Shown: positions 42,450 to 52,884 of the stretch, in pieces
Layout of the letters: the number at the start of each line of letters is the position of its first letter
Position numbering within the stretch: position 1 is the stretch's first letter
From: a virus
Taxonomy: Duplodnaviria; Caudoviricetes
IMG/VR virus record: IMGVR_UViG_3300032233_002657
Location: 1-64,000 of that record
Strand: one strand, 5' to 3'
DNA length: 64,000 nt
The notes under the pieces: model-generated
Databases searched by the model: none
What the model saw: the letters and a program-made list of their open reading frames with translations, nothing else
Told to the model about the DNA's origin: nothing
Translations under genes and position numbers: made by a program

Positions 42450-42547
42450 AATTGCTCCTTTAAAAAGTGATACCCAATAACCCACCTACTACACATCGTA
42501 AACAATAGGTGATCTCGTGGTTACTGGGTACCTTAGCTGTGTCAAAC

Positions 42548-42978
42548 TGCCCTAGCCCAACACAGCCTAGCCGTGCCTGCCATTCCGCGCCGATCCAGGC
42601 CCGACCATTCCATGCCTCCCCGCGCCCCGCCTGCCTCGCCACGCCTCGACTCGCCTCAACGGACCACGCCTCGCCTGCCGTGCGGGACCGGGCCCCGCCA
42701 AACCGCGCCTAGCCTGCCGTGCCGCGCCTCGACTAGCCTCGCCCGACCTAACCTCGTCACGCCAAGCCTTGCCCAGCCGAGCCTGCCAAGCCGATCGCAG
42801 CCGGACCGCGCCACGCCTCGCCTGCCATGCCTCGCCCCGCCCCGAGCTGCCTCGTCAGACCCCGCCGCGCCACGCCTCGCCTGCCACGCCTAGCCCTGCT
42901 CCGCGCTGCCCCGTCAGGACCCGCCACGCCTGCCTCGCCACGCCTCGACCGGCCTCGCCGGACCACGCCTTACCTGCC
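42548..42978 (-). ncRNA. pentamer array A: about 9 units of GGCA+(GGY-NN)n, putative guide-RNA array
   Basis: GGCAGGY separators at + coords 42575, 42629, 42673, 42712, 42781, 42820, 42879, 42928, 42972; intervals 54, 44, 39, 69, 39, 59, 49, 44 (all 5n+4). Repeat is certain; RNA function is inferred. Confidence 0.8.
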
Positions 42979-43098
42979 TTGTTGCTATCAATATAAATAA
43001 ACGGCTAAACCAACCCGCACAGTCGTAATGTTATGAACTATGGCAGCGCCTGCATAAATTACCCGTAGCCGAACAGCTGGTTTAGCCGAATGCTCATT

Positions 43099-43602
43099 TT
43101 ACAATATTGCTCTCATTTTATTAAGCATTTCAGATAGCTCTTCGTATTTAGAGTAAGTTGCTATAAGAGTTCTAATTCTGTCTAGCAACTGCTCTTTATG
43201 CTTGTTGTCAAGAGCGGGAGTCTTAGCGACTTCAATAGTAGGGTAGTAAGCCGACCCGTCTACTGAATTATGCACGTTTACAAAAGCTCTATATTTAACT
43301 TGAGTAGACACTTTAGAGTCAGGGTTATCTACCCTAGCAACTAAGCGCACTATGTTTAAAATCCTAGCAGCTTCTATTAAGTTTAACTTGTATTGCGCTA
43401 GATCTTTATCCCTAGTGAACAAACTATAGAATGTGTCGCTAGGTTCGCTGCTGTACTCTAATAGTGCCTCTGGAGTAAGCCTACCTCCGTTTTTATCTCT
43501 TATATCTATAACGGCTTCGTAAGCTTCTTTAGCCGTTACCCCAGGTATTTCTCTGCCTTTTCTGTACTCAAACCCTACGCTTTCCTTCTTCTTTTTTGCC
43601 AT
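43099..43602 (-). CDS. accessory protein between the RAMP-like gene and array A
   Basis: 167 aa, AGGAG RBS; GRLTPEALL...RAFVNV. Confidence 0.75.
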   Translation of the reverse strand: MAKKKKESVGFEYRKGREIPGVTAKEAYEAVIDIRDKNGGRLTPEALLEYSSEPSDTFYSLFTRDKDLAQYKLNLIEAARILNIVRLVARVDNPDSKVSTQVKYRAFVNVHNSVDGSAYYPTIEVAKTPALDNKHKEQLLDRIRTLIATYSKYEELSEMLNKMRAIL

Positions 43603-43634
43603 TTAGCTACTCCTGTGTAATTACCCTAGTAAAA

Positions 43635-44384
43635 TTACTCCCATGAGAACTCGTTTACTACTAAGTAGGTTCCATGGCTTCCACCTTTTTCAGGCCTCCA
43701 TTCACCGATACCAACGGTTTGCCCACTGTGGCTAATAAGTTGCGCCATCTGCTCAGCAGTGATATGGGCTGGGTTAAACCTTACAGAAAACTTAATGCCC
43801 CACTTCTTGAACTCAGGCCTGTGACGAAGATCAGGCTTGCCTAGCATGATTCTTACACGGTCCTGCCTCATAACCGGCCCAACTTTATTTGGGTGGTAAA
43901 CTGGTGTAAGTTCTCCGCCTTCTTCATCGTTTAGGATAAAGAACATCTGGCGAGCCACAGGGCGGCTTAGCTTAGGGTTGTTAGAGGTTAACGCTGAGAT
44001 AGCGGCAGCTTTTAGAGCAAGCAGAGGAAATCCAGGCCGACCGTCTTCGAGACGATAGAATGCGTTATTATATTCTTCTTCTGGATCTTTATCTTTTCTA
44101 GGGGCTGCACCCTTAGCTGCTTTTGTCTTTGATGGCTGCATTGATTCTAGCATCTGCTGCCTGCTCTTTTCTCCGAAGTTGTTTACAAGTAGAGGCGTTG
44201 TGCCTTCTACCGTGAACTCAAGCGTGTGCAGAGTTACTGGAGCGAACGTAAAGTTTACTGGTACAATTTTGCTAGCGCTATCTAACGTAGTAGCTGCAGC
44301 CTCTCCGCTCATATTAACTGCTTCTTTAATTTTACGAGCCTTCTTCATGAATTCTTTAGTAGTTTCGCGTTTGATAGTAGCCAT
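43635..44384 (-). CDS. stand-alone Cas7/RAMP-like RNA-binding protein
   Basis: N-terminal strand LEFTVEGTTPLLV, PGFPLLALKAA, RHRPEF..W, C-terminal Gly-rich loop VGIGEWRPEKGGSHGTY; start set at MATIK after GGAG. Confidence 0.75.
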   Translation of the reverse strand: MATIKRETTKEFMKKARKIKEAVNMSGEAAATTLDSASKIVPVNFTFAPVTLHTLEFTVEGTTPLLVNNFGEKSRQQMLESMQPSKTKAAKGAAPRKDKDPEEEYNNAFYRLEDGRPGFPLLALKAAAISALTSNNPKLSRPVARQMFFILNDEEGGELTPVYHPNKVGPVMRQDRVRIMLGKPDLRHRPEFKKWGIKFSVRFNPAHITAEQMAQLISHSGQTVGIGEWRPEKGGSHGTYLVVNEFSWE

Positions 44385-44557: not shown

Positions 44558-44740
44558 TTACCACTTAGAAGAGCTCGTCATTCCTGACCTCCATTCCCAG
44601 CTGCAGCCGCCCCAAAATGGGTTGCTCCAGCAGTAAGATGGCGCGTAGTAATCCATCATGTCTGTAAACCAAAGCTCTGAGCTGCCCCTATCTTCCTGCC
44701 ATCCTTGTGATCTATCGCTATCACATACTTTTCTAATCAT
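44558..44740 (-). CDS. Trp/Ser-rich MIR-family microprotein
   Basis: MIRKVC...; ATGA coupling. Confidence 0.65.
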   Translation of the reverse strand: MIRKVCDSDRSQGWQEDRGSSELWFTDMMDYYAPSYCWSNPFWGGCSWEWRSGMTSSSKW

Positions 44741-44937
44741 CGTTGATTATCCTCCAAGCTCCAAGAATCCGAACAGACCACATCTATACTCCAGGAGTCG
44801 GACCAAAACCAGACACTGATCCAGAGGCTGGACCAAGGCAATTGCCTGGACCTAGACCAATGCCGGTTTAGAGGCCAAGACTGGGAGAGGGGTCTATCTC
44901 CGCGCTTGGTAGCAGGTAGACATTTCATTATCATCAT
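44737..44937 (-). CDS. Trp/Ser-rich microprotein (MMIMK variant)
   Basis: AGGAG RBS; SW repeats. Confidence 0.6.
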   Translation of the reverse strand: MMIMKCLPATKRGDRPLSQSWPLNRHWSRSRQLPWSSLWISVWFWSDSWSIDVVCSDSWSLEDNQR

Positions 44938-44946
44938 CGTATTCTC

Positions 44947-45150
44947 CTATTCATCGTTGACGCCCCTACTCCAACACTTAGACCAAGTTTTAGATATAGA
45001 CCAAACACCTGACTTATCTTGGTCTTGGCATCTACTGCTATACCAAGACCCAGAGTCGATCATATTCCAATGCCATAGCCAAGTATAAGGCCAAGGCTTG
45101 TTCCAGTTAGTGGACCAACATTTAGATGTGGGCCACGCTTTTCTTATCAT
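44947..45150 (-). CDS. Trp/Ser-rich MIR-family microprotein
   Basis: MIRKAWPTSK; ATGA coupling. Confidence 0.65.
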   Translation of the reverse strand: MIRKAWPTSKCWSTNWNKPWPYTWLWHWNMIDSGSWYSSRCQDQDKSGVWSISKTWSKCWSRGVNDE

Positions 45151-45332
45151 AGTCTGCTCCCCCAACACCTAGACCCAAGCTCATCTTCAGCCCAGTTAAC
45201 AGACCAAACTAAAGATTTAATTTGAGACCTACTTACAGTAGTGTTATTAGACCAGGACGAAGACTCGTCAAGCCAGGAACAGCGGCTAGAATCAGTCCAA
45301 GACCTAGAAGCAGGCCATGCTTTTCTTATCAT
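45147..45332 (-). CDS. Trp/Ser-rich MIR-family microprotein
   Basis: MIRKAWPASR; ATGA coupling. Confidence 0.65.
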   Translation of the reverse strand: MIRKAWPASRSWTDSSRCSWLDESSSWSNNTTVSRSQIKSLVWSVNWAEDELGSRCWGSRL

Positions 45333-45484
45333 TTATTACTCCAGTCTCGATTTGTAGCCCAACACATAGACCAGAGATCTTCTAGGCTCCAAGACAAGCC
45401 ATAGACATAAGACCTAAGATTGGAACTCCAACTTTCGCCTTTAGACCAAGAGCGACACTTAGGAAATATAAATCTTCTTATCAT
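45329..45484 (-). CDS. Trp/Ser-rich MIR-family microprotein (51 aa, not in ORF track)
   Basis: MIRRFIFPKCRSWSKGESWS...; ATGA overlap at both ends. Confidence 0.65.
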   Translation of the reverse strand: MIRRFIFPKCRSWSKGESWSSNLRSYVYGLSWSLEDLWSMCWATNRDWSNK

Positions 45485-45669
45485 ATATCTTCCCCCCATA
45501 ACTCCGAGTAGGTTCCATCAGTTTTCCAAAGCCCACTCCAGCACCAATCCAGTATCCAACACGCTGCATGGCGCGGCCAAGGCGTATATCTTCTTTCGCT
45601 CCAAGATACTTCTTGATCTCTAGCCCAACACAGGGAGCGCCCCTCTGTTGTCACCGGTCTTCTTATCAT
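45481..45669 (-). CDS. Trp/Ser-rich MIR-family microprotein
   Basis: MIRRPVTT; ATGA overlap at both ends. Confidence 0.65.
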   Translation of the reverse strand: MIRRPVTTEGRSLCWARDQEVSWSERRYTPWPRHAACWILDWCWSGLWKTDGTYSELWGEDI

Positions 45670-45866
45670 ATTTGATGCCTCCAAGACCTGGAGTCAAACC
45701 TTCCTCTAATCCAACTCAAAGACTTACGCCAAGAGTTAGTCCAAGACCTAGCCACACCATAGGGCAAACTCCAATCCTGGGAGCAAATTACAGAGGACAA
45801 CAACTCAGACTCAGACCAAGATTCAAGCCAAGAACCAGACCTACCGCATAATGTTCTTCTTATCAT
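45666..45866 (-). CDS. Trp/Ser-rich MIR-family microprotein
   Basis: MIRRTLCG; ATGA overlap at both ends. Confidence 0.65.
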   Translation of the reverse strand: MIRRTLCGRSGSWLESWSESELLSSVICSQDWSLPYGVARSWTNSWRKSLSWIRGRFDSRSWRHQI

Positions 45867-46021
45867 ATGTCTGTTCTCCAAGACCTAGACCAAGGCCAGA
45901 CCCATCCAAAGCGCCACGCGCTGTTCCAAGACCAAGATTTAAAATTACAGCCGTAGGTGAATCTGGCATATGTTTGAGCACTTACCCAAGACTTAGATCC
46001 TGGCATTTTGTTTCTTATCAT
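45863..46021 (-). CDS. Trp/Ser-rich MIR-family microprotein (52 aa, not in ORF track)
   Basis: MIRNKMPGSKSW...WPWSRSWRTDI. Confidence 0.65.
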   Translation of the reverse strand: MIRNKMPGSKSWVSAQTYARFTYGCNFKSWSWNSAWRFGWVWPWSRSWRTDI

Positions 46022-46245
46022 TCTCCGCTCCTCGTCTTTATAGATCCTCTAATCCCCTTTGACCAAGAATAGCTTGAGTTCCTACCCAGTTCTGATATGG
46101 ATAGATACTCAGCTCCTTTCCAGGCCCTATTAAATCTCATTCTTCCCGCCCATTCGCAGGACCTAAACCAACCACTCGAACACGAGAAAGTAGGGCCTAG
46201 AATTGGGTTGTTAAAAGGCTTTCCCGCCTTATTGTGCATTCTCAT
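46018..46245 (-). CDS. Trp/Ser-rich microprotein (MRMH variant)
   Basis: TAATG overlap with upstream gene, ATGA with downstream gene. Confidence 0.55.
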   Translation of the reverse strand: MRMHNKAGKPFNNPILGPTFSCSSGWFRSCEWAGRMRFNRAWKGAEYLSISELGRNSSYSWSKGIRGSIKTRSGE

Positions 46246-46562
46246 TACGCGTCTAATGGCGCAAAGCACCATCGTGGTTGGTAAATAATCTCTACCGCCC
46301 CGAGGGAGATAATCACAGAAGATCCAATCGGATCCTCGGTGTTAGGGGTCTCCTGGCTAGAGGCGCCAGAAGTCTCGACAGCGCGCGCCTGCGCAAGCAC
46401 TAAGCAATCTTCCCCCACGTGAGATAGAATCCCACGGTAGTTGTACCGCGCACATAACACCGCTACTGGCTGCCCAAGAAACTGCTGTGCCACTTGCGCC
46501 ATGCTAGCTGCAGCTGTGCCATCTATTTCAACTAAACTAACTTTGCTTTTAACCTTAGCCAT
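46245..46562 (-). CDS. small beta-barrel (Sm/LSm-like) protein
   Basis: FLGQPVAVLCARYNYRGILSHVGEDCLVL...ISLGAVE; AAGGAG RBS. Confidence 0.55.
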   Translation of the reverse strand: MAKVKSKVSLVEIDGTAAASMAQVAQQFLGQPVAVLCARYNYRGILSHVGEDCLVLAQARAVETSGASSQETPNTEDPIGSSVIISLGAVEIIYQPRWCFAPLDA

Positions 46563-46587
46563 AATTCCAACTCCTTGAATGTGATTC

Positions 46588-46623
46588 AAACAAAAAAGGG
46601 GCAGCAGAACATCTGCTACCCCC
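46588..46623 (-). terminator. intrinsic terminator
   Basis: GGGGTAGCAGA/TCTGCTGCCCC + TTTTTTGTTT. Confidence 0.75.
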
Positions 46624-46648
46624 GTAAGCTAAACTTGTCTATATAATT

Positions 46649-46906
46649 TTAATTACCTAGAGTCCACCCTCTTCTGCCGGCGTTTTCCCAATCCCAAGAC
46701 ATATGTATTCCATCTGAATCATTTGACCAATTCCATGACCAGATCTGTTCAGGCGAGGACCAGCTGTTGGAGAACATCCAACTGCAGTTAGGCCAAGAGA
46801 ATGAGGTATGTGATCCGTAGAATGTATCTCTAACTTGTGAAACGTTATAACTGGAGCTGGATAAGCTCCAGTTATACGAGTTTCCAAATAGCGAGCGCCT
46901 TATCAT
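46649..46906 (-). CDS. Trp/Ser-rich MIR-family microprotein
   Basis: MIRRSLFGNSYNWS. Confidence 0.65.
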   Translation of the reverse strand: MIRRSLFGNSYNWSLSSSSYNVSQVRDTFYGSHTSFSWPNCSWMFSNSWSSPEQIWSWNWSNDSDGIHMSWDWENAGRRGWTLGN

Positions 46907-46908
46907 TA

Positions 46909-47235
46909 CTAGTCCGCTACCTTTCGCTCTTTCTCAGCGGCTAGCGGATCATACTCCCGCTGACGTGTCACGCACACCCACGATCCCTTAGGGAGCGTAA
47001 TATTTGAGTGCTCGTCATGACCCACGACAGTCTCTTCGGCAGAGAAGAGATAGATATCACCCTTCTCATCTACAAAAGAAGCTACTTCATTTGCAGAAGT
47101 GATCTGATGTGAATGCCCGGTGACTTCACCGAACGCCAAGATTTTGCTGCCTAGCGGCTTTAGCTTATCTAAGCCCGCTGGCTTCTTAACAACCCTAAAG
47201 AAAATATCACCCTGACGCGCTTGAAACTTCTTCAT
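46909..47235 (-). CDS. conserved His-motif protein typically paired with DUF6745
   Basis: RQGD, LAFGEVTGHSH, HDEH, RQREYDP. Confidence 0.7.
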   Translation of the reverse strand: MKKFQARQGDIFFRVVKKPAGLDKLKPLGSKILAFGEVTGHSHQITSANEVASFVDEKGDIYLFSAEETVVGHDEHSNITLPKGSWVCVTRQREYDPLAAEKERKVAD

Positions 47236-47257
47236 AACTAATTCCTTTGATTAAAAC

Positions 47258-47854
47258 TTAAGATTCTTGTGAAGGAGCATACTTATCTGCCTTCATATAG
47301 TTTGTCCAGGCCACCGCCTCTACACATGTTTTCATGTTTGGAGGCACGCACAGAAAGTAATTTTTAAAACTACCATCTGGCTCCGCCGTAGAGTTAACCA
47401 CCTTAACATACAAGGTGGGTTCTTCAAAGATTTTTGGAATCTCGAAGAGGACTCTTTCCCTGCCGAACTGATCTACGTCTCTATGCACTATACGTGTTGT
47501 AGGCATAGTCATGATTTTGTCTAGCCCAACTATCTTCATCCCAACGTATTTTACTTCTGAGTTAGGATGTCTTAACACCTCCTCTACCGTTACATCTTCC
47601 GGCTTTGTGAAGAAGTGAGGAGGAATACGCACCCCCTCGTAATAGTACAGAATACTGCCGAACTTGTCGGCGTCCATTCCGTGCTGCTTGCCGTTTTTGT
47701 ACCACATGATACGCGTGGGGCTAACATACGCTGGACCCGTGTCACAGTGCAGTCGCCCGTCTTCGTTTAATATGCGCTTAACAGGCCCGAAGCTAAACTC
47801 TCCGTTAAAGAACTTGAGTCGCGCCACCCAAGCTTCATACCCTTTATTTTTCAT
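47258..47854 (-). CDS. DUF6745-like protein
   Basis: RLHCDTGPA, YYEGVRIP, VVNSTAEPDG, YFLCVPP, AVAWT. Confidence 0.65.
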   Translation of the reverse strand: MKNKGYEAWVARLKFFNGEFSFGPVKRILNEDGRLHCDTGPAYVSPTRIMWYKNGKQHGMDADKFGSILYYYEGVRIPPHFFTKPEDVTVEEVLRHPNSEVKYVGMKIVGLDKIMTMPTTRIVHRDVDQFGRERVLFEIPKIFEEPTLYVKVVNSTAEPDGSFKNYFLCVPPNMKTCVEAVAWTNYMKADKYAPSQES

Positions 47855-47855
47855 A

Positions 47856-48053
47856 CTACCTCCTTAATTTCCAATTACAACTAGCAGAACAATCATCTTC
47901 CCAGCCGCCAGACCTATACCAGCTTTGTGAATGGGAAGTTGACTGAGACCTTGGCGATGACGGCCTTCCCCATGTTGCTATATGGAGTACAGCCCAAGAT
48001 GCATTAGAAGCACCAAACCAACTAGCCGGCATTGTTGCTGTTCTTCTAATCAT
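47856..48053 (-). CDS. Trp/Ser-rich MIR-family microprotein
   Basis: MIRRTATM. Confidence 0.65.
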   Translation of the reverse strand: MIRRTATMPASWFGASNASWAVLHIATWGRPSSPRSQSTSHSQSWYRSGGWEDDCSASCNWKLRR

Positions 48054-48214
48054 TCAAGCTCCATAAAATTTTCTGAAAACGCCCAGTTATTTACCCAGCT
48101 CCAAGAGAAGCATCCAGCAAAAATATTGGATACTCCCCAAAAATCTGATGCTGCTCTTGATGCGCTTCGCCCACAAGACCAGGATTGAGACATATGCATA
48201 CGGGATCTAAGCAC
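48050..48214 (-). CDS. Trp/Ser-rich microprotein (MLRSR variant, 54 aa, not in ORF track)
   Basis: GGAGG RBS + GTG; SQSWSC...FSWSWVNNW; ATGA coupling. Confidence 0.55.
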   Translation of the reverse strand: MLRSRMHMSQSWSCGRSASRAASDFWGVSNIFAGCFSWSWVNNWAFSENFMELE

Positions 48215-48449
48215 TATCCACCTCCGATAGTTTAATAACTTTAATTCCGATCTTAGGCCCTATCACTTGGCTTCTCTCAAAGATGCGACTTGTGTCAGGA
48301 ACATCTTCGTTCATAAGAACGAAAAGGTTTCCTCTTTTCTCAAACATCTGCCCTGTTATAGGAGCTATCCATGACCCACCTTCCTTTAGGTAAGTGAATA
48401 CTTTCTTTAACCATTGTATGTCTGTTACGCTAGGTTTCCATTCAACCAC
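48207..48449 (-). CDS. hypothetical protein
   Basis: AGGAGG RBS + GTG. Confidence 0.65.
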   Translation of the reverse strand: MVEWKPSVTDIQWLKKVFTYLKEGGSWIAPITGQMFEKRGNLFVLMNEDVPDTSRIFERSQVIGPKIGIKVIKLSEVDSA

Positions 48450-48491
48450 GAGGTCCTCCTTTAGACTGCCTATAGTAGGCTCGTAACGAGT

Positions 48492-48623
48492 TTAAAAAAA
48501 CCAACCATTTGCCCAGCCTCTACTCCATCTCCAGTCATCAGCCCAAGACACAGAGTAAGAATAAGGCTCAGACCAAGCTTTGGAGACGTCTCTAATTAAG
48601 TATGCTTTGCGTCTTCTTATCAT
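48492..48623 (-). CDS. Trp/Ser-rich MIR-family microprotein (43 aa, ends in a T7 run)
   Basis: MIRRRKAYL...GWANGWFF; TAATG overlap. Confidence 0.55.
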   Translation of the reverse strand: MIRRRKAYLIRDVSKAWSEPYSYSVSWADDWRWSRGWANGWFF

Positions 48624-48802
48624 TAAGCACCTCTCAAAATCCTATTTAAAAACCAACCTAGTGACCAATTTCTACTCCATTGAATCCAATTTGTTAAAGA
48701 CACAGAGTAAGAACAACCATGAGACCAGGACAAAGAGTAAACCCAAGGATCAGACCATGATTTAGATGAATCAAGTGGGTGTATTTTTCTTCTTATCATC
48801 AT
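48623..48802 (-). CDS. Trp/Ser-rich MIR-family microprotein
   Basis: MMIRRKIHP. Confidence 0.65.
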   Translation of the reverse strand: MMIRRKIHPLDSSKSWSDPWVYSLSWSHGCSYSVSLTNWIQWSRNWSLGWFLNRILRGA

Positions 48803-48996
48803 GGACCAACTCTCCGAGGTTTTAATATAGACCAAGGCAAGCGATTGAAGTGAGCCCAAGCACACGCAATACCCTTATACTTGTGTCCAGATATGGTCGT
48901 GTTTTCTGACCAGAGCCTATTTATCTTTTTGTCCTTAGTCCAACAAACAGACATTTTACTTTGATGCAATGGATACAAAAGTTTTCTTATCATCAT
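48799..48996 (-). CDS. MIR-family microprotein
   Basis: MMIRKLLYP; paralogue of next ORF. Confidence 0.65.
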   Translation of the reverse strand: MMIRKLLYPLHQSKMSVCWTKDKKINRLWSENTTISGHKYKGIACAWAHFNRLPWSILKPRRVGP

Positions 48997-49181
48997 GAAC
49001 TGACCCTCCAAGACTTGAACTTAGACCAAGGAAAGAACAGGAAATTGGAACAGGTCCCCCTAAGGATATGCCCGGAAAAGATCTTATTTTTGTCCCAAAG
49101 GCTATTTATCCTGATTTTTTCGGACCAGCACTTGGACATTTTTCTATCGCTATGTATAGCGTATACAAGTTTTCTTATCAT
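48993..49181 (-). CDS. MIR-family microprotein
   Basis: MIRKLVYA; AGGAG RBS. Confidence 0.65.
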   Translation of the reverse strand: MIRKLVYAIHSDRKMSKCWSEKIRINSLWDKNKIFSGHILRGTCSNFLFFPWSKFKSWRVSS

Positions 49182-49182
49182 G

Positions 49183-49386
49183 TTAACTCCTTACGGACCC
49201 TGAAAATCTATTGCACCATGCAGAAGAAGATATGGTTAAACCAGACCATAATGCTCCTCTAGAGCCGCGCCACAGTTTTGTAGTAGAGCGTACTTTAAGC
49301 TCTGTAAACGAATTACTACTCGTTCCTTCTTCGTTCCATGCACGACTATACCCGTGGGCCATAGTGTTTCCTGTTCTTGGGATCAT
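49183..49386 (-). CDS. Trp/Ser-rich microprotein (MIPR variant)
   Basis: AGGAG RBS. Confidence 0.6.
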   Translation of the reverse strand: MIPRTGNTMAHGYSRAWNEEGTSSNSFTELKVRSTTKLWRGSRGALWSGLTISSSAWCNRFSGSVRS

Positions 49387-49403
49387 TGGTTCTCCTAGTT
49401 AGG

Positions 49404-49601
49404 TTATCTGTGTATAGACCACGATAGAGACCTGAAAGCAGTAAAGAAATGACTATCCTGCCCTCCAATCCTGGATCTAGAGTATTTAGCCATGATGGAC
49501 GCTACCCCACCCGTTGTGTACACGAAAGCTCTATACTTAGAGCTGTAAGTTCTGGCTATTCCCCAAGAGTATGATCCAGGTGTGTTTATTTTTCTGATCA
49601 T
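49404..49601 (-). CDS. MIR-family microprotein
   Basis: MIRKINTPG. Confidence 0.62.
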   Translation of the reverse strand: MIRKINTPGSYSWGIARTYSSKYRAFVYTTGGVASIMAKYSRSRIGGQDSHFFTAFRSLSWSIHR

Positions 49602-49605
49602 TTGT

Positions 49606-49773
49606 TTACAGCCCCCAACTATTAGGCGCCCAACTGTTAGTCCGTGTGTGCCGCCACTCAGAGGATAGAGCCCAACACCTGGACCAAGAAAACGATTTAG
49701 CCGAAGACCTGGTCCAGTGCCCAGAGCCAGGCCAATCCCAAACAGGATAGTTATTGTTAGTTTTTCTTATCAT
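49606..49773 (-). CDS. Trp/Ser-rich MIR-family microprotein
   Basis: MIRKTNNN; TGATG overlap. Confidence 0.65.
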   Translation of the reverse strand: MIRKTNNNYPVWDWPGSGHWTRSSAKSFSWSRCWALSSEWRHTRTNSWAPNSWGL

Positions 49774-49976
49774 CAAATGTTTCTCCAATAATTTAAACTC
49801 CACCCTCCTGAGCTAAAACTATTGCACCAGCTGCCTATACCTAACCAAGGAGATGACATACAATGCTGCCACCCCCAGTTCCATGAACGATTTACAAAGT
49901 AGTAGTTCGCTGAGAATGATGTAGGTCTTATATTATTCCAGCACTTTGATTCATGGGTTCTTATTTTTCTTATCAT
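49773..49976 (-). CDS. Trp/Ser-rich MIR-family microprotein
   Basis: MIRKIRTHESKCW; ATGA coupling. Confidence 0.65.
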   Translation of the reverse strand: MIRKIRTHESKCWNNIRPTSFSANYYFVNRSWNWGWQHCMSSPWLGIGSWCNSFSSGGWSLNYWRNI

Positions 49977-51584: not shown

Positions 51585-51840
51585 CCGTGCCTGCCTCGCC
51601 ACGCCTCGACTCGCCTCAACGGACCACGCCTGCCGAGCCGTTTCGTGCCGTTTCGCGTCAAACCCCGCCCCGCCTTGCCTGCCTTGCCTATCCGTGCCTC
51701 GCCGGGCCTGGCCATGCCTGCCAAGTCCGTGCCTTGCGCCACCGCGACCCGCCGGGCCTGCCGCGCCTCGCCTTGCCCGCCCTCACCCCGCCTCGCCTGC
51801 CGCGCTTTTCCCAGCCGCACCATAACGAGCCGCGCCTTAC
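51585..51840 (-). ncRNA. pentamer array B1 (about 6 units), downstream of tRNA
   Basis: separators at 51589, 51628, 51677, 51716, 51756, 51795; intervals 39, 49, 39, 40, 39. Confidence 0.8.
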
Positions 51841-51854
51841 TTTTGAAACTATAT

Positions 51855-51926
51855 TGGGCCACCTCGGATTCGAACCAAGAACCAAGGAATTATGAGTTCC
51901 CTGCTCTGCCTTTGAGCTAGTGGCCC
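51855..51926 (-). tRNA. tRNA with CAU anticodon, probably tRNA-Ile2 (lysidine type); no encoded CCA
   Basis: GGGCCAC/GTGGCCC acceptor stem, CTCATAA loop, TTCGAATC T-loop; C4/C5 as in TilS substrates. Confidence 0.88.
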
Positions 51927-51934
51927 TATGAGTT

Positions 51935-52537
51935 GCCTGCCTCGCCAGCCCTCGCCCCGCCTGGCCACACCGCGCCTGCCAAGCCACGCCATGACTCGCC
52001 GCGACGTGTCTAACCTAGCCTGCCTCGCCAGCCCTCGCCCGCCCTTGCCATACCGAGCCTGCCGTGCCACGTCTCACCTATTCTTGCCCCGACATGCCTG
52101 CCGCGCCTCTCCCGAACAGGCCGCGCCTCACCTAGCCTGCCGCTCCTCGCCGCGCCTCACCTCACCTAGCCGTGCCTGCCATGTCCCGCCTGGTCAGGCC
52201 TCGCCCCGCCTAGCCTGCCTTGCCTAGACCTGCCCCTCCATGCTGTGCCCCGCCTAGCCTGCCTCGCGTTACCATGCCGCTCCATTACAAACCCGGCCGT
52301 GCCTGCCATACCTCGCCGAGACAGACCTTGCCGAGCCGCACCGCGCCTGCCATGTCCCGCCATGTCGTGCCTAGCCTGCCGCGCCGAACCTCGGCTGACC
52401 TCGACTTACCGTGCCTGCCTCGCCTCGCCAGGCCCAGCCTTGCCTGACCGTGCCTGCCGCTCCTCACCACGCCTCGCCGAACCTCGCCCAGCCTAGCCTG
52501 CCTTGCCACGCTCTGCCTAGCCGGGCCGTACCTTGCC
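51935..52537 (-). ncRNA. pentamer array B2 (about 15 units), upstream of tRNA
   Basis: separators 51935...52496; 14 intervals: eight of 39, five of 44, one of 29 (all 5n+4). Confidence 0.82.
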
Positions 52538-52560
52538 TCAATTTAGCAAGTTACCTTGCC

Positions 52561-52884
52561 CTAATTTCTTCTACTCCTTTTCTTACTACGATAGCCCCTA
52601 CCGTTATATCGACCCTTTGAGTTTCTGATATAGGAGTCTTGAAGATGCCTGGAGAACTTTCCTGGAGTCCAGTAAGGTTTTCCAGCCTCCATGTTGCTAT
52701 CGGTCCGTAAGAACATGTAGCACAGAACTATACTAAATAACATAAAAACGAATGACTTCAATACGATAGAGGCCACAATGCCTCCGGCAATAATCCAAAA
52801 GGATATTGTTGTATTGTCATCGTTTGCCGTATATTGTTTGTAGCTCATTTTATATAATCCCGAAGGGCCACTCACGTGATACAC
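52561..52884 (-). CDS. small membrane protein (likely start MSYKQ, 52848)
   Basis: hydrophobic hairpin, basic tail. Confidence 0.6.
   Translation of the reverse strand: MYHVSGPSGLYKMSYKQYTANDDNTTISFWIIAGGIVASIVLKSFVFMLFSIVLCYMFLRTDSNMEAGKPYWTPGKFSRHLQDSYIRNSKGRYNGRGYRSKKRSRRN

Follow-up and report, generated by a model that had tools for sequence, protein, structure and literature searches.

VIPR (Viral Interference Programmable Repeat) systems have been known only since 2026, and their natural targets have so far been reported for few clades. They are phage-encoded and comprise the protein Vipr, an accessory gene, vap, and guide RNAs (vrRNAs) in which GGY alternates with NN; one Vipr protomer binds each repeat, the NN dinucleotides pair with double-stranded DNA (dsDNA) with one base skipped, and competing satellites and prophages are transcriptionally silenced by systems that fall into seven types (bioRxiv 10.64898/2026.04.26.720920, 10.64898/2026.04.26.720927). 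Here, we analyzed a 64,000-nucleotide (nt) stretch of viral DNA, hereafter the window, which is the first part of the IMG/VR record IMGVR_UViG_3300032233_002657. This record has a size of 181,489 bp (GC content, 44%; CheckV completeness, 88%), is classed as viral, and encodes a large terminase whose distant kin are the terminases of ~180-kb Salmonella and Vibrio phages. We conclude that a locus on the minus strand of the window is very probably a VIPR system, which would silence integrative elements of a probable planctomycete host. An earlier note, made from the sequence alone, had proposed a candidate RNA-guided system at this place; our findings support this interpretation, but this kind of system had already been described in the two preprints. 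Because VIPR is already published, the locus represents no new class and reveals no new kind of system; what is new are the decoded targets, and the locus is a further member with the staggered form, unusually many guides, and a tRNA inside an array.

The first gene of the locus, vipr (43635 to 44384, minus strand), starts with ATG, has GGAG upstream, and encodes a protein of 249 amino acids (aa). Together with a 167-aa open reading frame (ORF) and a pentamer tract on the same strand, it is present exactly where the earlier note had placed it. Pfam gave no match for the protein, and its PHROGs matches are to families of unknown function only. The sole sequence match in the PDB is the SUSP1 Vipr protein (36pp, chain 36pp_D), with an E value of 5.4e-7 for the single sequence and of 2.7e-15 for a profile of 47 homologues, the latter spanning residues 2-188 of the 202 residues of the chain. 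This homology is distant, in that the single-sequence match covers only the C-terminal ~50 residues. The alignment pairs LRHRP with MSYRP and GIGEWRP with GVGDWRP, and SUSP1 R138, D177, W178 and R179 correspond to R189, E228, W229 and R230 in the window protein. In SUSP1 Vipr, these residues hold the two guanines and the pyrimidine, while H17 touches G1 (10.64898/2026.04.26.720927). R187, R189, G225, R230 and P231 are invariant and G227, E228 and W229 nearly invariant in the family, and the GIGEWRPEKGGSHG loop (the G-loop, GxGEWRPEKGG) is its most conserved block. The E-W-R of the G-loop and the thumb Arg, which are predicted to grip GGY, are kept in the window Vipr, with Asn at the H17 position; the type II systems of SUSP1 and Pseudomonas fulva likewise have (D/E)-W-R and a thumb Arg.

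The AlphaFold2 (AF2) model of the 249-aa protein (predicted local distance difference test [pLDDT] score, 81) gave 80 structure matches in the PDB at E≤1e-3, and the best folds in Foldseek are Csm3/Cas7 subunits from complexes of types III and VII (E 4e-6; probability 1.0; TM-score, about 0.47-0.56), at a sequence identity of 9-14%. As modeled, the protein is a RAMP with an RRM/RAMP core, a thumb and a glycine-rich loop. Our analysis establishes both the fold and the homology: the RAMP hallmarks that the earlier note had read from the sequence are real, the Cas7/Csm3 likeness that it expected is borne out, and its comparison with VIPR-type loci agrees with the homology to the solved SUSP1 protein and with the array grammar described in the preprints. 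We also notice that Vipr homologues with 30-33% identity are labelled hypothetical in 25 Mycobacterium phages (Brocalys, Donkeykong, Saal and others), five Gordonia phages and one cyanophage.

vipr is followed by a vap-like accessory gene of 167 aa (43099 to 43602, minus strand), and the two genes form, as in SUSP1 and P. fulva, a two-gene vipr-vap operon of a phage with GGY/NN arrays downstream. In 68 of 80 related viral loci, vipr is immediately followed by an ORF encoding 80 aa or more; this ORF usually encodes 140-180 aa and, in most loci, is detectably homologous to the 167-aa protein. The partner has no match in Pfam or among PDB sequences and none in Foldseek at E≤1e-3. Its AF2 model (pLDDT, 89.5) consists of an alpha/beta domain at residues 8-127 and a long C-terminal helix of 38 residues, and VIA Z is 5.0-5.8 for residues 8-127 against the winged helices of Fur, FoxP, MecI and MarR, which is suggestive of a winged-helix-like N-terminal domain. 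No nuclease signature was found in the partner by Pfam, PDB sequence or structure comparison; this fits blocking rather than cutting and is consistent with the expectation of the earlier note.

Downstream of vap lie a leader of ~125 nt (42975 to 43098), which ends in GATAGCAACAAGGCA, array A (42578 to 42974) and a trailer (42547 to 42577), which begins with GGCACGGCTAGGCTGTGTTGG. Array A comprises eight units, each of which consists of 7-13 GGYNN pentamers and ends with GGCA; the unit lengths are 44, 49, 59, 39, 69, 39, 44 and 54 nt, i.e., 5k+4 in all eight. A larger array B, which the coordinates of the earlier note did not include, lies 7 kb from array A and is divided by a tRNA-Met on the same strand (CAT; 51855 to 51926; Rfam, 63 bits; also found by ARAGORN) into an upstream part of about 16 units (51938 to 52537) and a downstream part of about six units (51592 to 51836), with regular units flanking the tRNA on either side. 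A genome-wide scan of the full 181 kb found 5-nt-periodic GG in these two tracts only (~42547-42974 and 51590-52589), both on the vipr strand; a stretch of 57% GC at 1000-2100 lacks this periodicity and is therefore no third array. Promoter and terminator scans gave signals at shuffle level. Among the GGCAGG-delimited segments of both tracts, 26 of 29 have a length of 4 mod 5, which amounts to 5-13 pentamers with GGCA at the end (P about 1e-15). The other three are a 15-nt fragment, a unit of 40 nt and the segment that contains tRNA-Met. The pentamer array seen by the earlier note is thus real and far from chance, although the count of NN dinucleotides per unit is slightly wider than its 7-13. 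In the 201 pentamers of 26 regular units, the first three positions are G in 96%, G in 86% and Y in 91%, and the two variable positions use all 16 dinucleotides. Altogether, the two arrays hold about 30 units. The last seven NN dinucleotides of the final array B unit (51630-51592) are identical to those of the array A unit 42675-42632.

Staggered arrays, in which back-to-back vrRNAs overlap by 1 nt, are depicted in one figure of the first preprint (fig. S18, 10.64898/2026.04.26.720920). Compared by description only, the GGCA/GG phase break in the window, with its unit lengths of 5k+4, has the same one-base shift and fits this form. Confirmation by small-RNA sequencing is given only for the ribozyme-interspersed and the single-vrRNA architectures (10.64898/2026.04.26.720920). 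The window phage differs from SUSP1 and P. fulva in having about 30 units in two arrays that are 7 kb apart and of which one contains a tRNA, and its units of about 29-69 nt compare with ~100 nt in those systems.

Searching with a degenerate G-loop motif, we identified 511 viral contigs encoding Vipr relatives. Of the 71 homologue loci in which the downstream sequence was long enough, 56 carry an array of 5-periodic GG on the same strand, between -1.5 and +2 kb from the vipr stop codon, against a background expectation of 0.02 arrays per 3.5 kb, and most of these arrays begin 450-600 nt downstream of the stop. The co-occurrence of homologues and pentamer arrays, on which the earlier note had made its proposal depend, is hereby established. 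Relatives with 38-46% Vipr identity have the same GGCAGGC punctuation and a spacing of 44, 49 and 54 nt. Phages with 98% Vipr and 92% Vap identity have leader and trailer in common, as well as some units, while most other units differ; in the related phages L003-L006, the array is flanked by the leader stretch with GATAGCAACAAGGCA at its end and by the same trailer. One related phage has an 8-NN version of the 13-NN guide of the window. In addition, a DNA contig from an estuary metagenome joins 42820 to 42973; what it lacks is precisely units 1-3 of array A (44+49+59 = 152 nt), a unit-level indel polymorphism between strains.

We searched for targets under the published 1-nt-skip rule, here written NNx, in which the NN dinucleotides pair and one base between them is skipped; the upper window coordinate serves as the name of each guide. 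Searches at genome scale covered all units except 42930 and two 5-NN guides. For the 13-NN guide (42783-42715), in which two non-GGY pentamers were left unspecified so that 22 bases were searched, a single contig matched among 185,579 species genomes, namely in the metagenome-assembled genome (MAG) Planctomycetaceae bacterium UBA969, as did ten freshwater metagenome contigs. All 11 sites also fit the four unspecified bases, giving 26/26, and differ from each other at skip positions only; by chance, 0.07 matches would be expected with 22 bases and 3e-4 with 26. Translated, the site reads VASYSRYSTNLQD, which is the catalytic-serine motif of a large serine recombinase of 713 aa; the phage itself has no homologue of this protein. 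At the family level, the original MAG was the only one of 151 genomes with this target.

The other guides were searched in 12 genomes of the UBA969 genus, or in five of those, and eight of them matched, with reversed-pattern controls near zero. From array A, guide 42631 (10 NN; unit 42631-42578) matches a family-A DNA polymerase at GAEMMRLAAI (19/20), and guide 42822 (7 NN; unit 42822-42784) the exonuclease domain of another family-A DNA polymerase (14/14). From array B, guide 52347 (8 NN) matches the bpMoxR ATPase of a MoxR-vWA module (two matches of 16/16, three of 15/16); guide 52020 (8 NN) a tyrosine integrase (16/16 twice, 15/16 twice) at KTMSAVYY in LGHTGGKTMSAVYY, which resembles the catalytic-Tyr motif; guide 52303 (8 NN) a second serine recombinase (16/16 five times); guide 52176 (7 NN) a second tyrosine integrase (14/14 twice), which was not selected for and lies 1.3 kb from the 52303 target; and guide 52415 (7 NN) a third serine recombinase at a STKDQDSA motif (14/14). 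Finally, guide 52098 (7 NN) has 49 exact sites in five genomes, with a control of 0, at the motif MGKYEVT in repeats of the FGE-sulfatase domain that are fused to Ser/Thr kinases. The nine matched guides thus point to three serine recombinases, two tyrosine integrases, two family-A DNA polymerases, a MoxR ATPase and an FGE-sulfatase domain.

These targets are established at the sequence level, and the expectation of the earlier note that the NN dinucleotides spell non-contiguous targets is supported by nine guides that match genes in frame. All nine sites start at codon position 1 (P 5e-5), which puts the skipped base at the wobble position; with respect to the target gene, seven guides are sense and two antisense. 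Because every third base is skipped, a guide would read codon positions 1 and 2 of a coding sequence and ignore the wobble position. Among the gapped spacings that the earlier note had listed (NN-x, NN-xx and NN-xxx), only that with one skipped base holds: in 158 kb of host loci, which were chosen with four of the matching guides, the 1-nt skip gave 15 matches and the other spacings 0, 0 and 0. Independent guides meet on the same contigs. No self-targets were found in the phage's own genome, where the best matches are at background under every skip rule, and none of the guides had a target in 1.08 Mb of other VIPR loci. As in SUSP1 and P. fulva, the NNx targets lie in coding sequence on either strand, with the wobble base skipped, mostly in genes of other mobile elements and not in the phage itself; unlike in these systems, the putative host is a planctomycete and one guide is directed at a multi-copy host domain. 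As far as sequence can tell, the locus carries every defining feature of VIPR.

In one alternative explanation, the same VIPR machinery serves mainly in anti-defence, and the guides silence host immunity loci together with recombinases that mobilise defence islands. Three targets speak for this idea. Guide 52347 is directed at the ATPase of the MoxR-vWA module itself. The 26/26 serine recombinase adjoins AbiEii/AbiEi (type IV toxin-antitoxin/abortive infection) amid chromosomal genes for sulfatase, PDZ, EF-hand and FG-GAP proteins (L092, 5170-8929; L087, 992-3975). Guide 52098 has its 49 sites in giant planctomycete proteins of 1178 to over 2400 aa, in which a Ser/Thr kinase is fused to many tandem FGE-sulfatase domains (L136; G155:C89:4000-19000). 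This domain, which may be sensor-like, has 10-19 copies per genome, and 11 wobble-variant MGKYEVT sites lie within 15 kb in L136; FGE-sulfatase domains have reportedly been proposed in the comparative-genomics literature as sensor modules of conflict systems. However, five of the nine targets are integrases or recombinases and two are phage-type DNA polymerases, the hallmarks of integrative and replicative elements, as in SUSP1 and P. fulva. Moreover, a defence role of the MoxR and FGE loci is putative, and the AbiE genes are convergent with the recombinase and outside its operon. We therefore consider it unlikely that anti-defence is the main function.

A broader reading, which we regard as a tentative possibility, goes beyond the silencing of single competing elements: a large lytic-type phage of Planctomycetes might shut off whole gene families simultaneously with ~30 guides that read codon positions 1 and 2, including serine and tyrosine recombinases at their catalytic motifs, phage-type DNA polymerases, a MoxR ATPase of a conflict system and FGE domains, and VIPR might also be a family-wide means of anti-defence and host reprogramming. 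If so, guide decoding could assign hosts to uncultured phages.

It is very improbable that the GC-rich tracts are not guides at all and consist of simple-sequence DNA or of Gly/Arg-rich coding sequence with coincidental matches to host genes. Mechanical ORFs of 60-140 aa do run across the arrays, and some 16-base patterns match unrelated conserved families in IMG/VR. For instance, guide 52303-52260 has 32 matches in IMG/VR, of which 21, in as many contigs, are antisense and in frame on the SFMAIKRV motif of a 450-1800-aa protein, mostly of high-GC phages; as a target, SFMAIKRV is probably a coincidence with an over-represented phage protein family. However, the arrays have a 5-nt period whose phase shifts by -1 every 7-13 units, and no reading frame is compatible with this pattern, which rules out the arrays as coding sequence. 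Chance matches would also have to account for the near-zero reversed-pattern controls, the wobble-skip frame of all nine sites, the meeting of independent guides on the same contigs, and the exclusive success of the 1-nt skip in the host loci, in the selection of which four guides were used.

Least probable of all is an orphan or degenerate CRISPR-Cas remnant with a lone Cas7 and a decayed array that is functionless today: the nearest folds are indeed Csm3/Cas7, but the locus lacks a repeat-spacer architecture and has a period of 5 nt rather than of 24-40 nt plus spacer, gene, partner and array are kept together over hundreds of viral contigs, the only PDB sequence match is Vipr and not a Cas protein, and the guides have perfect in-frame targets. 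The statement of the earlier note that the window contains neither a CRISPR repeat nor cas genes finds partial support: Rfam identified no CRISPR repeat family and, as its only match, the tRNA; for cas genes, the precomputed Pfam table listed no Cas family for the 48 genes around the locus of a near-identical relative, which limits this negative to those genes, as no dedicated cas HMM scan of the full 181 kb was made. The window Vipr resembles the class 1 Cas7 backbone (Csm3 of type III-A and Cas7 of type VII) in its RRM/RAMP fold, thumb and glycine-rich loop and, presumably, in that each protomer takes up one fixed step of the RNA and bases are flipped periodically. It differs in a predicted step of 5 nt instead of 6 nt, with three guide bases sequestered per step, and the locus differs from class 1 CRISPR systems in lacking a repeat-spacer array, Cas5/6/10/11 and adaptation genes. 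The Vibrio phage ICP1 carries a complete type I-F CRISPR-Cas system against the host-resident satellite PLE, which acts by DNA cutting and acquires spacers. The locus is similar to that system in that an RNA-guided phage system would be aimed at a resident mobile element, but no nuclease or adaptation module is evident in it.

Based on these comparisons, we suggest the following model for VIPR in the window phage. Both arrays would be transcribed and cut at the GGCA/GG phase breaks to give about 30 short vrRNAs, and the ends of tRNA-Met in array B may provide an additional processing site (RNase P/Z) for the flanking guides. By analogy with the VIPR preprints, from which filament formation, the skip rule and silencing are carried over, Vipr protomers would polymerise with one protomer per pentamer, GGY would be sequestered by the E-W-R of the G-loop together with the thumb Arg, and the displayed NN dinucleotides would pair with dsDNA, skipping every third base. 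Because no nuclease is evident and the partner is winged-helix-like, a block of transcription is the likely outcome. The targets would be integrases and recombinases, mostly at catalytic motifs, family-A DNA polymerases, the MoxR ATPase and the multi-copy FGE-sulfatase domain. We infer the processing sites, the host and the biological purpose, which would be that the phage suppresses resident integrative elements and possibly defence genes. The host is probably a member of the UBA969 genus of the Planctomycetaceae.

Several observations weigh against this model. The host assignment comes from the guide matches alone. Among the 24 guides with at least seven NN dinucleotides, 15 have so far no target, and in the UBA969 genus or in five of its genomes, there was no convincing match for guides 42974, 42881, 42714, 42675, 52498, 52454, 52137, 52059, 51976, 51718, 51679 and 51630. 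Where a 7-NN guide gave one match only, this match is weak by itself (0.16-0.38 expected per search). As a multi-copy domain of the chromosome, the FGE-sulfatase target is at odds with the published mobile-element paradigm. On the side of the RNA, GGY is broken in 10-15% of the pentamers, and the invariant 3' tail and pseudoknot of the characterised type II vrRNAs of SUSP1 and P. fulva are absent in the window, where units abut with GGCA alone between them. On the side of the protein, the position of SUSP1 H17, which contacts G1, is Asn in the window Vipr, while the family consensus is His. Finally, in the metatranscriptome assemblies of two studies, contigs lie on part of vap (43092-43333) and on both flanks of the locus but not on the arrays, although such contigs cannot show absence.

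Several candidate matches were set aside. A 19/22 match of guide 42881 is at chance level, an exact match of guide 52215 is out of frame, and guide 51797, with a single match in the host-genus search, is outside the set of nine guides. Exact-pattern scans of IMG/VR with the three longest guides (13 NN as 22 bases, 11 NN and 10 NN) gave nothing, and neither did a search of metagenomes with the 11-NN guide. In IMG/VR scans with 16-18 specified bases, one match lies outside any polymerase and is attributable to chance, and the tyrosine-integrase guide had eight mixed matches.

Altogether, the decoded guides confirm the 1-nt-skip code independently and by computation alone, for a distant clade with staggered arrays. 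Guides that are directed at catalytic motifs of integrases and polymerases address sequences that are hard for the target to mutate, and with a wobble-blind code one 14-base guide spans dozens of paralogues. Moreover, guide decoding ties an uncultured 181-kb phage to a genus of the Planctomycetaceae, in a phylum for which very few phages are known.

We also noticed features around the locus and its targets. A DUF6745 protein is encoded at 47258-47854, 3 kb upstream of vipr, and a DUF6744 protein in the targeted MoxR-vWA island (L121, 3516-4418); both are families of unknown function. Directly upstream of vipr (44558-49976, minus strand) lie overlapping small ORFs that start with MIR[K/R] (ATGATAAGAA) and are rich in Ser-Trp (TCTTGG) repeats, and these are present in related phages, too.

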